A stretch of 64,000 bases of DNA from Candidatus Coatesbacteria bacterium (GCA_014728225.1 WJLX01000012.1:591-64590), one strand, 5' to 3'. Positions 2,437 to 53,127 are shown, counted from the stretch's first letter. Numbers and translations are program-made. The notes: generated by a model from the sequence alone, not told the origin.

Positions 2437-3741
2437 CTAACCGTTTTTGACGGTGATGTTGAAGGTTCGTTCGCCGACCTTGACGCGGACTTTGACCCGT
2501 TCGCTTTCGGGGTTGACGCGAATGTTGAGTCCGTCGGAGTCGCCGTCGACGGAGGCCTGCCAGGTGACCCGGGTGGCGGTGGCTTCGAGGACGCGGTCGT
2601 CCTCGCCGGCGGCGTAGTCGCCGCCCTTTTCGAAGCCGAGTTCGTAGTCGGCCAGCAGGGTGCCCTCGCCCTCGATGATCTCGGCGGAGCCGTCGAAGCC
2701 CTCGAAGGGCGGGTTGTCGTAGCGGTCGAGGTTGCCCCAGCGGATTTTGATGGTTCGGCCGTCGTCGTGAAGCCAGGCGTTGGCGCGGTTGTGATCGCCG
2801 ACGGCGCTGATCAGGATCACCCGTTCGAAGTCGCCGGCGGTGACTCGGACCCGGGCGTCGCCGCCCCGGGGTTCGACGTGGACGTTGAGGCCGTCGCCGT
2901 CGGCGGGGCGAACGGAAGCCTCCCAGCGGACGACGTCGGGGCCGTCTTCGAGGATGCGGTCGTTGGAGCCGCTGGAGTAGGAGCCGTCGCTTTCCCAGGA
3001 GTGGGTGTCGGTGACAGAGAGCTCGGCCCGACCGACGACGACGGTCACCTCGCCGTCGAAGGTTTCGAAGGGTGTGCTGGGGAAGGCATCGAGATTGCCC
3101 CAGCGAATCTTGACGGTCCGGTTGTCGTCGTGGAGCCAGGCGTTGGCGCGGTTGGGTCCGACCTCGCCCTCCTCGGGCGGTCCGCCCATGGTCCAGTTGG
3201 TCACCGAGCGGGTCAGCGAGCGTTCGTGCATTCCGTTGAGATCTACGACGAATTCGCCCAGCCAATCGCCCAGATGCAGGTGAACGATCTCTTCACCGGT
3301 GACCGTAATCCCGAAGGTCAGTCCGTCGGTGTCGTTCTGCGAGCTGGCGCGCCAACTGAGGTAATCGGGGCCTTTGTCGACGACGGCGTCGTCGCCGCCG
3401 GAGTCATAATCGCCGCCGGAGTCCAGCAGCTCATGGTTGATGACCGTGCAGGGGCTTTGCTCGGGGTCGAGGAAGCCGTCGAAATAGTTCAGTCCAACCC
3501 CGGGTCGGTTGTCGAGGTTGCCCCACTCGAGTTCGAAGACCAGCTGGGCGCGCTCGTCGTTGATCTCGCGCCGGGAGACCTGTTCGAGGCGCAGGACGTT
3601 GCCGGCGGAATCGAGTTGCAGGCTGGCGGCTCCCTGGGCGGCGGCGGGTACTCCCGTGGCGGCGTAGAGGGTAACGAGCAGCCAGGCTGGCGGACGGCTT
3701 TTCATCAAGTTCATCATAGTCGATAGCGACAGGCTTGGCAA
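2437..3741 (-). CDS. secreted protein with three tandem ~110-aa 'WGNL' repeat domains of unknown function
   Basis: Signal peptide. Internal repeats carry (L/I)(E/R)WGNLD...FDGF...GGDY..G.DD.V..GPD.V.W.AS...DGL...V.....GD(W/F)..EF. Paralog of the adjacent 3791..4315 gene. Confidence 0.6.
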   Translation of the reverse strand: MPSLSLSTMMNLMKSRPPAWLLVTLYAATGVPAAAQGAASLQLDSAGNVLRLEQVSRREINDERAQLVFELEWGNLDNRPGVGLNYFDGFLDPEQSPCTVINHELLDSGGDYDSGGDDAVVDKGPDYLSWRASSQNDTDGLTFGITVTGEEIVHLHLGDWLGEFVVDLNGMHERSLTRSVTNWTMGGPPEEGEVGPNRANAWLHDDNRTVKIRWGNLDAFPSTPFETFDGEVTVVVGRAELSVTDTHSWESDGSYSSGSNDRILEDGPDVVRWEASVRPADGDGLNVHVEPRGGDARVRVTAGDFERVILISAVGDHNRANAWLHDDGRTIKIRWGNLDRYDNPPFEGFDGSAEIIEGEGTLLADYELGFEKGGDYAAGEDDRVLEATATRVTWQASVDGDSDGLNIRVNPESERVKVRVKVGERTFNITVKNG

Positions 3742-6820: not shown

Positions 6821-7009
6821 CCCGAGAGACCGTTGACGAAACGGCTGCGCGGTCGGGCTCGTCGCGGTCGGAACCGGCACGGTTTTTGCGGAGGCCGACC
6901 GTTAACGTCGGCCGTAACGGTCGCCGAGATGCAAAAACCGTGCCGGTTCCGACCGCCGTGGCGTTGTCGGGTGTCGGCGCGGCGGGCCTTGCGTCAACGG
7001 TCTCTCGGG
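6821..7009. repeat. nested palindromic repeat element, copy B (core 6866..6954, GGAGGC-first orientation)
   Basis: Same 22-bp arms as copy A. Inner hairpin GACCGTTAACG...TAACGGTC. Outer inverted repeat CCCGAGAGACCGTTGACG (6821-6838) / CGTCAACGGTCTCTCGGG (6992-7009). Confidence 0.8.
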
Positions 7010-15305: not shown

Positions 15306-16871
<1,566 letters not shown>

Positions 16872-18474: not shown

Positions 18475-18530
18475 GTGTTTTTGCGCCGCCGGACCGGACG
18501 GGTCCGGCGGCGTTGCAAAAACCGTGACGG
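18475..18530. repeat. degenerate relative of the palindromic element (variant D)
   Basis: GTGTTTTTGC GCCGCCGGACC ggac GGGTCCGGCGGCG TTGCAAAAACCGTGACGG. Confidence 0.5.
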
Positions 18531-18542
18531 CCCGGCGCAGCG

Positions 18543-28200: not shown

Positions 28201-28361
28201 CCGCGAACGACCTCGACGGACGCCAGCCACGCCAGCCCCCCGAGCCGGCACGGTTTTTGCGGAGGCGAACCGTCGCCGTCGCTCCGACGGCCGCCGAGCT
28301 GCAAAAACCGTGCCGGCTCGGGGGGCGAGGTCGAAAGACGGGCCGTCGAGGTCGTTCGCGG
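28201..28361. repeat. nested palindromic repeat element, copy E (core 28236..28326, GGAGGC-first, GAGCCGG variant)
   Basis: Core CCCCCGAGCCGGCACGGTTTTTGC GGAGGC ... GCCGAGCTGC AAAAACCGTGCCGGCTCGGGGGG. Outer inverted repeat CCGCGAACGACCTCGACGG (28201-28219) / CCGTCGAGGTCGTTCGCGG (28343-28361). Confidence 0.8.
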
Positions 28362-35014: not shown

Positions 35015-35017
35015 ACG

Positions 35018-35215
35018 CCGGGAACCTTTGAAAAACGACGCCGGCCCGGCGCGCGGCGTCGGATACGCCCGGCGCCGGAACCGGCACGGTTTTTGCGGAG
35101 GCGCAGCGTGGCCGACGCTCCAACGGGCGCCGAGATGCAAAAACCGTGCCGGTTCCGGCGCCCCGGAGCGCCGCAGCGGCGCGGGCGTAGAGCGCTGTTT
35201 TTCAAAGGTTCCCGG
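35018..35215. repeat. nested palindromic repeat element, copy F (core 35071..35162, GGAGGC-first)
   Basis: Core GGCGCCGGAACCGGCACGGTTTTTGC GGAGGC ... GCCGAGATGC AAAAACCGTGCCGGTTCCGGCGCC. Outer inverted repeat CCGGGAACCTTTGAAAAACG (35018-35037) / CGCTGTTTTTCAAAGGTTCCCGG (35193-35215). Lies between the STAND gene and mutS. Confidence 0.8.
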
Positions 35216-35257
35216 CGGTTGTGCGAATAGGTCAACCCGGCCAAACCAGAGAAACCG

Positions 35258-39536: not shown

Positions 39537-39718
39537 CCCCGGAAAAGGAACCGCCGCCGCGTCTCTAACGACACGGCGCGGGACCGTCGGAACTGGCACG
39601 GTTTTTGCGGAGGCGGACCGTTAGCGTCAGCCGTAACGGCCGCTGAGATGCAAAAACCGTGCCAGTTCCGACGGAGGCGGCGAGCCTTATCAACTCTCGC
39701 GCATTCCCTTTTCCGGGG
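39537..39718. repeat. nested palindromic repeat element, copy G (core 39585..39674, GGAGGC-first, GGAACTGG variant)
   Basis: Core CCGTCGGAACTGGCACGGTTTTTGC GGAGGC ... GCTGAGATGC AAAAACCGTGCCAGTTCCGACGG. Inner GGACCGTTA...TAACGGCC. Outer inverted repeat CCCCGGAAAAGGAA (39537-39550) / TTCCCTTTTCCGGGG (39704-39718). Lies between convergent genes. Confidence 0.8.
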
Positions 39719-41367: not shown

Positions 41368-41580
41368 CCGCGCCGGCGTCAATCCAGACCTGGTTGAAGG
41401 TGGTTTGCGGCGGCTTGGCGATGCGGCCGCCGGAACCGGCACGGTTTTTGCATCTCGGCGACCGTTACTGACGATGATAACGGTTCGCCTCCGCAAAAAC
41501 CGTGCCGGTTCCGGCGGCGCGGTCCAGAGTTGTCGGTGTCGGGTCTCTGGTGGCGGGGTCTGGATTGACGCCGGCGCGGG
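41368..41580. repeat. nested palindromic repeat element, copy H (core 41426..41518, ATCTCGGC-first)
   Basis: Core GCCGCCGGAACCGGCACGGTTTTTGC ATCTCGGC GACCGTTActgacgatgaTAACGGTTC GCCTCC GCAAAAACCGTGCCGGTTCCGGCGGC. Outer inverted repeat CCGCGCCGGCGTCAATCCAGACC (41368-41390) / GGTCTGGATTGACGCCGGCGCGG (41558-41580). Confidence 0.8.
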
Positions 41581-49880: not shown

Positions 49881-50018
49881 CACGAGCACCCGACGACGAC
49901 AGCCCGGACCCCCTTCACAGCACCCCCTTATTCTTGACACACCCCGCGCCCCGGTGTTACTTTCATTGCGCTATCAACACCCACGGGGAGCTCCCCGCAA
50001 CCCCCGACAAAGACAACT

Positions 50019-50864
50019 TTGGTCCCCAGCTTAAAAAGGCTGCTGGCGGCTCTGCGCCGTCTGCCCGGCATCGGCGCCAAATCCGCCCAGCGCATCGGCT
50101 ACCACCTCCTGCGCGCCGACGACCAACAGAGCCTCGAACTCGCCCGCTCCATCGTCAACCTCACCCGCCGCGTCGGACTCTGCTCCATCTGCGGCAACAC
50201 CGCCGAGGTGGGCCGCAATCAAGAACGGGCCAAGTACGGGGGCCACGCCTTAGAAGACGGACGGACCACCCGCGAAGAACCCACCGACGAGCCGGGCCGC
50301 AATCAAGAACGGGCCAAGTACGGGGGCCACGACTTAGAAGGCGGACGGACCACCCGCGAAGAACCCGCCGGCGAGCCGGGCCGCAATCAGGGGGGGCCGC
50401 ATAATGGGGGCGGATCACCCGCAGAGGCGGATTACGAGACCCCCGACGGCGGCGCGACAAGCCTCGTCTGCGACATCTGCGCCGATCCCGAACGCGACCA
50501 CGGCCGCCTGCTGATCGTCGAGGAACCCTACAACGTCGAGGCCTTCGAGCGCACCGGCGTTTACGACGGCTACTATCACGTCCTGGGGGGCTTGTTCGAT
50601 CCCCTCGCCGGGATCGGCGCCGAGGAGCTGAGCCTCGACCACCTGGTCGTCCGCCTGCGCCGCGGCGCCTATCGCGAGGTCATTCTGGCCACCAGTCCGA
50701 CCTCGGCCGGTGAGGCCACCGCCTCTTATCTGCGGGAACTGCTCGAGCCTCTCGAACTCGAGGTCACCCGCATCGCCGTGGGCCTCTCCGCCGGCGCCGA
50801 CGTCGACTACGCCGACGAGGTCTCCCTGCGCCTGGCCCTCGAGGGACGCCGCCGCTTTAGCTGA
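50019..50864 (+). CDS. recR: recombination protein RecR carrying an ~85-aa low-complexity insertion inside the zinc finger
   Basis: MVPSLKRLLAALRRLPGIGAKSAQRIGYHLL (helix-hairpin-helix). CSICGN ...[insert]... CDICAD. Toprim/C-terminal RecR motifs are intact. Confidence 0.8.
   Translation: MVPSLKRLLAALRRLPGIGAKSAQRIGYHLLRADDQQSLELARSIVNLTRRVGLCSICGNTAEVGRNQERAKYGGHALEDGRTTREEPTDEPGRNQERAKYGGHDLEGGRTTREEPAGEPGRNQGGPHNGGGSPAEADYETPDGGATSLVCDICADPERDHGRLLIVEEPYNVEAFERTGVYDGYYHVLGGLFDPLAGIGAEELSLDHLVVRLRRGAYREVILATSPTSAGEATASYLRELLEPLELEVTRIAVGLSAGADVDYADEVSLRLALEGRRRFS
50211..50392 (+). repeat. in-frame 84-bp tandem repeat (~2.2 copies) inside recR
   Basis: GGCCGCAATCAAGAACGGGCCAAGTACGGGGGCCAC... 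repeated at 50211 and 50295, with a third partial start at 50379. Encodes GRNQERAKYGGH(A/D)LE(D/G)GRTTREEP(T/A)(D/G)EP. Confidence 0.8.
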
Positions 50865-51139
50865 GGCTGGCGGCCGACGCGGGCGACTGGTATACTGGAG
50901 CTGTTATCACGGTGGCGGCGGTATCCCGACCGCAGCCTCCTTCGACGCCGGACGGGCCGACGCCGGACGGGCGTTTATGCGGATGATGACCCGCCTCGAC
51001 CGGTAAACCAGCGTCAAACCTTATCTCAACCCGGCCTTTTCTTTACCACGTGACCCGGGAGCCCGGGAGAACGCAACCGCAGCAATCCAGCGGGCGGCGC
51101 AATCCCGGCCCCGCAAGCTCGCCGCGGAGTGGCTGAATC

Positions 51140-51637
51140 ATGGAACACGAACAAAGCGTTGAGCTTTTCGAGGAAGATTATCAAATCATCAACCGCGTGC
51201 TGTCCCGTCTGCTGACGGAGGCCAACGCCCGCATCGTCCTGCTGGTCGACCGCTCCGGGCAGTTGATCAGCTCCCACGGCGACACCTCCAATATGGACTC
51301 CACCGCCTTCGCCAGCCTGTCGGCGGGCAACTTCGCCGCCACCAGCGCCCTGGCGAAGATCCTCGGCCAGGACGAGTTCTCCGTGCTCTTCCACCAGGGA
51401 GAGAAGGAGTCCATCCATATCTCCATCGTCCAGAGTCGGGTCATCCTGGTCATCGTTTTCGACAACCGCACCAGCCTCGGTCTGGTACGGCTGCGGGTCA
51501 AGAAGGCCCTCGAAGAGCTGTCCACCGTCTTCGAGAACATCTTCGCCAAGCTGGGCGCCTCCAGCCAGAGCCGCAGCCTGGACTCCTCCTTCGCCTCGGT
51601 CGCCGAGAGCGAGATCGATAATCTCTTCAAGGACTAA
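51140..51637 (+). CDS. mglB: Roadblock/LC7-domain protein (MglB-like GTPase-activating protein)
   Basis: Roadblock fold hallmarks: VLLVDRSGQLISSHGD...AALSAGNFAA. Located immediately upstream of mglA. Confidence 0.7.
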   Translation: MEHEQSVELFEEDYQIINRVLSRLLTEANARIVLLVDRSGQLISSHGDTSNMDSTAFASLSAGNFAATSALAKILGQDEFSVLFHQGEKESIHISIVQSRVILVIVFDNRTSLGLVRLRVKKALEELSTVFENIFAKLGASSQSRSLDSSFASVAESEIDNLFKD

Positions 51638-51705
51638 CCAGCGGGCGGCGCGTCCGGCTCCAAGCGAACGCCGCCGCTTCTTAAAAGCACGGGGGATGGC
51701 TCTCG

Positions 51706-52299
51706 ATGTCGCTGATCAACTACGCCAATAAGGAGATCAACTGTAAGATCGTCTATTACGGTTGCGGCCTGTGCGGCAAGACGACCAACCTGCTCTACAT
51801 CCACAAGAAGATCGCCGCCGAGTACCGCGGCAAGCTGGTCAGTCTGGCCACCGAAACCGACCGCACCCTGTTCTTCGATTTCCTGCCCCTCGATCTGGGC
51901 AGCATCCAGGGCTTCACCACCCGCTTCCACCTCTACACCGTCCCCGGCCAGGTCCACTACGACGCCTCGCGCAAGCTGATCCTCAAGGGCGTCGACGGCC
52001 TGGTCTTCGTCGTCGACTCCCAGGTCGAACGCATCGAGGACAATATCGAGAGCCTGGAGAACCTCAAGGTCAATCTGCGCAGCCAGGGCTACGAACTCGA
52101 TGACCTGCCCATGGTCGTGCAGTACAACAAGCGCGACCTGCCAAACGTCGTCCCCGTCGAGGAGCTGGAGCGCCAGATCAACCACCGCAACGACCCCAGT
52201 TTCGAATCCATCGCCACCGAGGGCGTCGGCGTCTTCGACACCCTGCGCGCGATCAGCAAGCTCATCCTGGCCAGCATCAGCCAGAAGCAATCCGTCTAG
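51706..52299 (+). CDS. mglA: Ras-like small GTPase MglA
   Basis: MSLINYANKEINCKIVYYGCGLCGKTTNLLYI...TETDRTLFFDFLPLDLG...FHLYTVPGQVHYDASRKLILKGVDGLVFVVDSQ...QYNKRDLPN. Near-identical motif-for-motif to the Myxococcus MglA sequence as I remember it. Confidence 0.9.
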   Translation: MSLINYANKEINCKIVYYGCGLCGKTTNLLYIHKKIAAEYRGKLVSLATETDRTLFFDFLPLDLGSIQGFTTRFHLYTVPGQVHYDASRKLILKGVDGLVFVVDSQVERIEDNIESLENLKVNLRSQGYELDDLPMVVQYNKRDLPNVVPVEELERQINHRNDPSFESIATEGVGVFDTLRAISKLILASISQKQSV

Positions 52300-52506
52300 T
52301 CTTTTCATCCAGGCGACTCCGGCGACGTCCGTCGGGGAGGTAACCCGTTCCCGATGCTGGAAGAGGCACCACCCGTCCTGCGCTGAAACACTGGGGTGGA
52401 TGGCCGCCCTTCCGGCCTCTTTACGCCGGACAACCGACGACCGTCAGCGTCCGTTACGCGCCGCCGAGCAACCCCAAACCCGACCGGAAGCCAACCACCG
52501 CCGACC

Positions 52507-53127
52507 ATGCCCTTCGATGGAGACTTAAAGGATTTCGCCCTGCCCGACATCCTGCAGATGCTGCAGATGGGTAAGCGCACCGGCGCCCTGTCGATCCGGC
52601 GCGGTGAGGATATCGGCACCCTCTACTTCCGCAAGGGCGAACTCGTCCACGCCACCTTCGCCAACATGACCGGCGAGGATGCCGCCTACGCGCTGTTGAA
52701 ATGGAAGAACGGCCGCTTCCGCTTCGACACCACCATCTATCCCACCCGGCGGACCATCGACATCTCCGCCACCAATCTGATTCTGGAATCGGCGCGGCGC
52801 TCCGATGAGCTGCGCGACCTGCAGACCGAGCTGCCGCCGCCGGACACCGTGCTGACCTTCGCCAAGGTCGAGGGCGCCCACGACGATATTCACCTCTCGC
52901 CCCAGCAGTGGAAGGTCCTGGCCCTGATCGACGGCGCGCGCACCATTACCGAGATCTGCGCCGTCTCGGACCAGGATGAGGTCACCGTGCTGCAGACCCT
53001 CGAGGAGATGATCAATATCGGCCTGGTCAGGCGGGTCGGGGATAACGCGGCGGGCGAGGAGGAGATCGACCTCGACGAGGAAATCGGCGCCCCCGACGAT
53101 GACTGGGACCGTCCGCCGGGCTCCTGA
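52507..53127 (+). CDS. DUF4388-domain protein downstream of mglA
   Basis: MPFDGDLKDFALPDILQMLQMGKRTGALSIRRGEDIGTLYFRKGELVHA matches the DUF4388 N-terminal signature. Acidic C-terminus. Confidence 0.55.
   Translation: MPFDGDLKDFALPDILQMLQMGKRTGALSIRRGEDIGTLYFRKGELVHATFANMTGEDAAYALLKWKNGRFRFDTTIYPTRRTIDISATNLILESARRSDELRDLQTELPPPDTVLTFAKVEGAHDDIHLSPQQWKVLALIDGARTITEICAVSDQDEVTVLQTLEEMINIGLVRRVGDNAAGEEEIDLDEEIGAPDDDWDRPPGS

Follow-up and report, generated by a model that had tools for sequence, protein, structure and literature searches.

The recR gene of a Candidatus Coatesbacteria genome carries an in-frame tandem repeat between the two cysteine pairs of its zinc finger, and near-identical genes from other assemblies carry one to four copies of a related unit. 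The stretch of DNA analyzed, called here the window, is 64,000 nucleotides long, and positions are counted from its first letter. The repeat is probably a young, lineage-specific coding minisatellite located at the tip of the zinc-finger hairpin, where it would be a tolerated passenger of a functional RecR and not a new domain. The insert-bearing RecR is a new variant of a well-known protein, not a new system. The gene and its parts are as follows.

50019-50864, plus strand: recR coding sequence, 281 amino acid residues, TTG start, TGA stop (open reading frame and domain matches)
50034-50159, plus strand: RecR_HhH, residues 6-47 (Pfam PF21176, 55.6 bits)
50181-50192, plus strand: first zinc knuckle, C55-S-I-C58, its two Cys invariant across the 119-RecR alignment
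50193-50210, plus strand: G-N-T-A-E-V, native N-terminal half of the loop (homologue of canonical xN[IL]T[DE])
50211-50294, plus strand: repeat unit 1, 84 bp, GRNQERAKYGGHALEDGRTTREEPTDEP (TRF, codon-register alignment)
50295-50378, plus strand: repeat unit 2, 84 bp, GRNQERAKYGGHDLEGGRTTREEPAGEP (TRF, codon-register alignment)
50379-50468, plus strand: degenerate third unit and native C-terminal half of the loop, GRNQGGPHNGGGSPAEADYETPDGGATSLV (TRF, alignment)
50469-50480, plus strand: second zinc knuckle, C151-D-I-C154, Cys invariant in the 119-RecR alignment
50505-50777, plus strand: Toprim domain (Toprim_4), residues 163-253 (Pfam PF13662, 72.7 bits)
50781-50852, plus strand: RecR C-terminal motif (RecR_C), residues 255-278 (Pfam PF21175, 28.2 bits)

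The encoded protein is 100% identical to MBD3398941.1, deposited at NCBI from a Candidatus Coatesbacteria MAG. It scores 195.4 bits with the RecR equivalog model TIGR00615 (NCBIfam), above the curated cutoff of 162.55, and the match is divided by the insert into two stretches. The helix-hairpin-helix, the Toprim domain and the C-terminal motif are all detected by Pfam, which returned no match to the RecR zinc-finger model PF02132 or to any other zinc-finger model. All four Cys residues of the finger are kept. In comparison with canonical RecR (TIGR00615; PDB codes 1VDD, 3VDP, 5Z2V, 8K3F and 8A93), the domain order, the four Cys residues and the predicted fold are the same; however, the spacer between the Cys pairs has 8 residues there, 92 residues here and 55-142 residues in the sister alleles.

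The insert lies between the hexapeptides CSICGN (residues 55-60) and CDICAD (residues 151-156), which are separated by 90 residues. A repeat with a period of 84, 2.3 copies, 93% matches and no indels was located by TRF at 50198-50389 with a score of 335. It is the only strong tandem repeat across the 64 kb, the runner-up having a score of 67. Units 1 and 2 are the same at 80 of 84 nucleotides (95%) and 24 of 28 amino acid residues (86%), with four nucleotide differences, all nonsynonymous. A unit-specific pattern has two matches in the window and none in 100 shuffles, so chance is ruled out. In the third unit the agreement with the full units ends after the first 11-18 nucleotides. This stretch contains a G7 run at 50390-50396, a G-quadruplex-like motif, and a 15-16-bp internal duplication, GGGCCGCAATCAGGGG / GGGCCGCATAATGGGG, at 50378-50410. 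In the two full units an 11-bp near-duplication, CAAGAACGGGC / CAAGTACGGGG, at 50220-50240 and 50304-50324 takes the place of a G8 run found in the relatives. These sub-repeats suggest that small-scale template slippage has reshaped the window allele.

The original prediction, made by a model from the DNA alone, had described an in-frame 84-bp tandem repeat between the Cys pairs of RecR, a third partial unit, and an intact frame with intact Toprim motifs downstream. The open reading frame and TRF confirm the repeat, the degenerate unit at 50379-50468 corresponds to the third one, and the Pfam and TIGR00615 matches agree with the remainder. The two units of 28 residues also stand, while the identity of 93% ascribed to them is the TRF nucleotide figure, the peptides being 86% identical. 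The predicted insert length of 85 residues is about right, the net gain being 84 over the 8-residue spacing. The prediction that a normally compact C4 finger is split here is borne out by the spacing of the Cys pairs in other RecR proteins.

This spacing, counted from the second Cys of the first pair to the first Cys of the second, was compared in the window RecR and 118 of its best homologues. It is 8 residues in 106 of 106 sequences from outside Coatesbacteria, 13-20 residues in the insert-free RecR of Coatesbacteria, and 55, 84, 92 (the window), 113 and 142 residues in the insert-bearing lineage, an extra loop of 47-134 residues over the canonical spacing. A search of genome and metagenome contigs for further alleles or intermediates, in which the species-representative set did not include the source MAG, found insert-free RecR only: six Coatesbacteria species genomes and five metagenome contigs have a loop of 12-15 residues after CxxCxN, that is, a spacing of 14-17. 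The insert-free Coatesbacteria proteins (P0006-P0013; L006-L011) are 61-80% identical to the window RecR and have the same loop ends, N-[ITV]-A-E ... [LV]-[VIT]-C. Their loops, too, are lengthened, to 13-20 residues, and variable in sequence; they contain neither a tandem repeat nor the GRNQ...YGG...GRTT unit. From these alignments it appears that Coatesbacteria had already relaxed the otherwise fixed loop length, and that one species-level lineage then gained the minisatellite.

Five other assemblies contain a near-identical recR with 1, 2, 3 or 4 copies of a related 87-bp (29-aa) unit, as counted in short-read assemblies, which can collapse or expand repeats. Their RecR chains of 244, 273, 302 and 331 residues correspond to one, two, three and four units followed by a short degenerate tail; the window protein has 281 residues. 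The contigs are 93-97% identical to the window at the DNA level and share with it the order of genes: PfkB kinase, a small beta-barrel-like protein, recR, Roadblock/LC7, Arf-like GTPase, DUF4388 and UvrD. Among the four alleles with 87-bp units the flanks differ at 0.05-0.84% of 2-3 kb of positions. Because alleles of one to four units have flanks that differ so little, the copy number must shift much faster than point substitutions accumulate. Alleles L002 and L004, for example, differ by one unit in the array but at only 1 of 2049 flank positions. The 3-unit allele, array included, is identical in L002 and L003, which come from two different samples. Unit 1 of L004 consists of the 5' half of L002 unit 1 and the 3' half of L002 unit 2. 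Its unit 2 has four differences of the type seen in L001 unit 3, and for this reason L004 is not a mere collapsed copy of L002. Such mosaic units appear to be the pattern expected from unequal exchange.

All length differences between alleles and between lineages are multiples of three, both in the units (84 versus 87 bp) and in the tails (90 versus 60 nt). The tails of the two lineages cannot be aligned. The units of the two lineages have the short motifs G-R-N/I-Q, Y-G-G, G-R-T-T and E-P in common. In some of the relatives' units the last codons encode H-T-A-E-V, copied from the native N-T-A-E-V just ahead of the array, and the duplications therefore took in native loop sequence.

Bacterial coding minisatellites, or VNTRs, show length polymorphism arising by slipped-strand events or unequal recombination; they are used in MLVA and are seen in surface-protein repeats. 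The recR array is like them in its head-to-tail units, its period that is a multiple of three, the absence of indels within the array, the mosaic units, and the copy number that varies, as counted from assemblies, among near-identical strains. It is unlike the usual coding VNTRs in that it is found in a cytoplasmic housekeeping recombination mediator and between zinc ligands, not in a surface protein or linker region.

Selection was estimated by Nei-Gojobori counts between the window and the lineage with 87-bp units. The recR flanks have 19-24 synonymous and 2 nonsynonymous differences (pN/pS 0.031-0.039). Within the repeat, pN/pS is 0.85 between the window units and those of the relatives and 2.85 among ten distinct units of the relatives, while units 1 and 2 of the window have no synonymous and 4 nonsynonymous differences between them. 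The insert is present in both lineages, so the flanks were under constraint in a gene that already had it. Purifying selection at a pN/pS of 0.03 in the flanks indicates that recR here is functional and is not a pseudogene. Among the units there are approximately 15 nonsynonymous and 2 synonymous events, which is not a significant departure from the neutral expectation of 3:1, and for this reason we take the insert to be free of constraint rather than under positive selection. The pN/pS value above 1 among the units could hint at diversifying selection, but the counts are too small to tell.

The composition of the insert also differs from that of the flanks. Aligned insert positions have diverged by about 20% between the lineages, in comparison with 1-12% per 100 nt around them. 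The GC3 value is 0.70-0.77 in the insert and 0.87-0.92 in the flanks, the codon-position GC profile of the insert is flat, and the rare codons TTA, ACA and CCT are present in it. The low GC3 and the rare codons would fit a young sequence. Disorder-promoting residues make up 79% of the insert and 51% of the flanks, and hydrophobic residues 14% and 42%, respectively. The net charge of the insert is about -7, although a single unit, at -1 to -2, is only slightly acidic. An acidic insertion of the halophile type was rejected on account of these weakly acidic units and of the RecR flanks, which are not acidic.

The divergence from the 87-bp-unit relatives is uneven along the gene. Ahead of the array, 200 nt of recR (50018-50217) have 0-1 differences where about 7.5 are expected. 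Downstream of it, 396 nt within 50454-50864 have 21-26, and there are 4 in the 100 nt that precede the start codon. Either recombination, over a tract with its end at the array, or constraint on synonymous sites in the 5' part of the gene may explain the low divergence there.

The structure of the window RecR was predicted by AlphaFold2 with a mean pLDDT of 79.8. Outside the array, the ten-residue blocks of the core mostly have values of 83-97 with one dip, to 68, at residues 251-260. In the insert, the blocks over roughly residues 71-140 have values of 41-52, with only a weak helix at residues 66-73; only 5 sequences of the 119-sequence alignment contribute in the insert columns, and this shallow alignment may be responsible for part of the low confidence. 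The model outside the insert is a confident RecR fold, and the top Foldseek matches are all RecR structures (4JCV, 3VDP, 5Z2V, 1VDD and others) with target-normalised TM values of 0.75-0.88. When the window protein is aligned by sequence to 3VDP and 2V1C, the alignments are interrupted exactly at residues 62/63 and 149/150, and the canonical halves of the spacer, xN.T[DE] and ..V-C, are preserved on either side of the insert.

In C. jejuni RecR the CxxC motifs are located in the beta1-beta2 and beta2-beta3 loops (PMC10454854). The strands predicted at residues 52-54 and 61-63 of the window protein match beta1 and beta2 of this finger subdomain, which would put the insert ahead of the second CxxC, in the beta2-beta3 loop. 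The role of the RecR finger is described in reviews as structural and stabilising (PMC12192639; PMC10454854). At the N-N dimer interface of T. tengcongensis RecR, helix alpha1 of one subunit is in contact with a loop residue of the other (PMC3510498). By analogy, oligomerisation or access to DNA could be influenced by the long acidic loops, of which a tetramer would have four.

A recently expanded minisatellite and a tolerated surface loop were both among the options of the original prediction. The two are upheld together, by the 1-4 units found among strains with flank differences of 0.05-0.8% and by an array that is unconstrained and predicted to be disordered within a gene that is otherwise constrained. 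A frameshift, which was named as the sign of a pseudogene, is seen in none of the six alleles, and the flanks have a pN/pS of 0.03. In the predicted structure the array is disordered and the RecR fold around it is preserved. Sister genomes with an uninterrupted finger were expected in the case of an artefact; other Coatesbacteria species are indeed without the repeat, but the nearest relatives (93-97% nucleotide identity) are all repeat-bearing.

These observations allow us to propose the following course of events. The loop between the CxxC knuckles of RecR would first have lost its fixed length in Coatesbacteria. Head-to-tail duplication of a segment of about 28-29 codons, the native TAEV codons among them, would then have begun in one species-level lineage, and replication slippage or unequal recombination between units would alter the copy number faster than point mutation. 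Every allele remains in frame because the period is a multiple of three. The peptide, rich in Gly, Arg, Glu, Thr and Pro, would project from the hairpin tip of the finger, between beta2 and the second CxxC, as a disordered and probably surface-exposed loop. All four zinc ligands could still assemble, in which case zinc binding would be retained, and the HhH, Toprim and C-terminal modules would work as in an ordinary RecR. The peptide sequence itself would be under little or no selection, functionally neutral and free to drift.

A RecR spacer that has 8 residues in all sampled proteins outside Coatesbacteria thus stretches to 55-142 residues in a gene under strong purifying selection. This is a natural experiment on the tolerance of a structural zinc finger, and it argues that in RecR the hairpin tip of this finger is dispensable for the core mechanism. 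In this Coatesbacteria population the array could serve for strain typing. For annotation and assembly pipelines it is a warning, since the Pfam zinc-finger model fails on such a protein and short reads may miscount the copies.

The repeat was found in recR only. A repeat search of the 64-kb window and a pattern search of the window and the fetched loci gave no copy of the unit elsewhere than in recR, and blastn-short and tblastn of the unit against the window and 38 loci gave just chance 11-12-mers and compositional matches. The unit pattern had no match in metagenome contigs, a collection that evidently does not contain the JGI samples carrying the alleles. An exhaustive phmmer search of 1.84 billion representative proteins with the 86-aa insert returned a RecR relative only, besides two weak chance matches to repetitive proteins: P0121 (E 6.6e-5), which by its sequence looks like a eukaryotic repeat, and P0122, a repeat protein of 2325 aa (E 2.6e-4). 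No Rfam family was matched over the whole window. The fold z-scores of the unit sequence, -0.27 as RNA and +1.22 as DNA, are not below those of shuffles, and the unit is not palindromic. At the unit starts there are relaxed G-quadruplex motifs alone (loops of up to 9 nt) and none by the canonical definition. It may be speculated that the relaxed motif contributes to the instability of the array. An intein, an intron and translational bypass were rejected on size, missing motifs and the lack of an Rfam match.

An alternative to the tolerated minisatellite is that the insert is adaptive, a flexible arm serving as an RGG/YGG-like tether for nucleic acid or a partner, or as a solubilising acidic loop, with the copy number tuning the assembly or loading of RecR. 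We regard this as improbable. Two lineages at a divergence of 3-4.5% have both kept the insert in frame, but its peptide is not under purifying selection, with pN/pS of 0.85-2.85 in the units versus 0.03 in the flanks. The four short motifs common to both unit types speak for an arm of this kind; the tails of the two lineages, however, are unalignable, and the copy number is free to vary from 1 to 4. The net charge of about -7 and, by analogy with T. tengcongensis RecR, a loop position that would adjoin the N-N dimer interface are in favor of such a role. On the other hand, no similar peptide occurs in other protein families among the 1.84 billion representatives, and other Coatesbacteria manage without the insert.

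It is very unlikely that the array and its G runs form a contingency locus, switching or modulating RecR by frameshift or by length and so giving heterogeneous recombination or escape from a factor that targets RecR. The sequence CAGGGGGGGGCC, with its G8 run, is present in 8 of the 10 distinct 87-bp units and CAAGGGGGGGCC, with G7, in the other two, and the window retains the G7 run at 50390. However, both full units of the window have AGAACGGG in place of the G8 run, the frame is kept in 6 of 6 assembled alleles, and the database matches included no frameshifted or truncated form. Copy number that outpaces the flanking substitutions and unit variation that is nearly all nonsynonymous could be expected of such a locus, but the ratio of about 15:2 is not significantly off the neutral 3:1, and recR is a housekeeping gene, neither a surface nor a restriction gene. 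In a related reading the loop is a selected hypervariable module of RecR, diversifying with the help of slippage-prone G tracts and tuning RecFOR or escaping an inhibitor, for example one encoded by a phage. There is little to recommend this either; if true, it would mean a contingency-type locus in a core recombination gene.

Rickettsia palindromic elements and in-frame MITEs place a short extra peptide in a conserved protein without destroying it. The recR unit resembles the Rickettsia elements in being an extra in-frame peptide tolerated by a conserved protein; it differs from them in being confined to a single locus, non-palindromic and tandemly amplified, with ends that copy native codons. 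A foreign in-frame mobile insertion of this kind, or the remnant of an intein or intron, duplicated later, is extremely unlikely. For recR the insert has an atypical codon-position GC pattern, and the genome does have a family of dispersed 93-bp palindromic elements, but the unit has no sequence in common with that family, nor a palindrome, fold signal or Rfam match of its own. No other copy was found in the window or the 38 loci at the DNA or protein level, none outside the RecR lineage in the 1.84 billion proteins apart from the two chance matches, and none in the metagenome scan. The unit ends that copy the native TAEV codons point to endogenous duplication, and inteins are longer than the insert and have motifs that are missing from it. 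That the whole insert was produced by short-read misassembly, an option which the original prediction had left standing and which 84-bp units that are 95% identical and shorter than typical reads, together with the one-unit difference between L002 and L004, might favor, is extremely unlikely in view of an insert that is always in frame in six independent assemblies from three pipelines (NCBI MAG, JGI and Logan), of an identical 3-unit allele from two samples, and of the L001-type differences in the second unit of L004. An error in the exact copy number of the window is a different matter, and there is some chance of it, although we think the count is likely to be correct.

Several other features of the window were observed. 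In this genome recR is outside the common dnaX-ybaB-recR arrangement. Just downstream of it, between genes, is a perfect 15-bp tandem duplication, CGACGCCGGACGGGC x2, at 50943-50972; the region has a 13-nt gap in the relatives, which is another indel of the slippage type. The genes directly downstream of recR, at 51140-53127, encode Roadblock/LC7, Arf-like small GTPase and DUF4388 (PatA_N) proteins, a set which we take to resemble an MglB/MglA-type GTPase module. In the syntenic relatives this module is followed by a UvrD helicase gene.

The dispersed elements of about 93 bp are located at 2289-2382, 6864-6956, 15411-15511, 28235-28326, 35016-35217 (core 35072-35161), 39584-39674 and 41426-41518, with a partial match at 18507-18535. 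They have perfectly complementary arms of 25-30 nt, CCGGAACCGGCACGGTTTTTGC ... GCAAAAACCGTGCCGGTTCCGG, around an interior of 40-42 nt, and where the arms change the changes are paired, so that complementarity is preserved. The elements are found in both orientations, are essentially intergenic and have no Rfam match. They look like a REP- or MITE-like family, or a family of structured intergenic RNAs or terminators, unrelated to the recR repeat.

Over the whole window there are 7 runs of at least 7 G on the plus strand and no run of at least 7 C. The homopolymer runs show this strand asymmetry in a window with its probable genes divided evenly between the strands (21 versus 23). A direct repeat of 103 nt, at 2689-2791 and 3052-3154 (81% identity, spaced by 363 nt), is located within a probable minus-strand gene at 2437-3741 and is likely to be an internal duplication of a protein domain.
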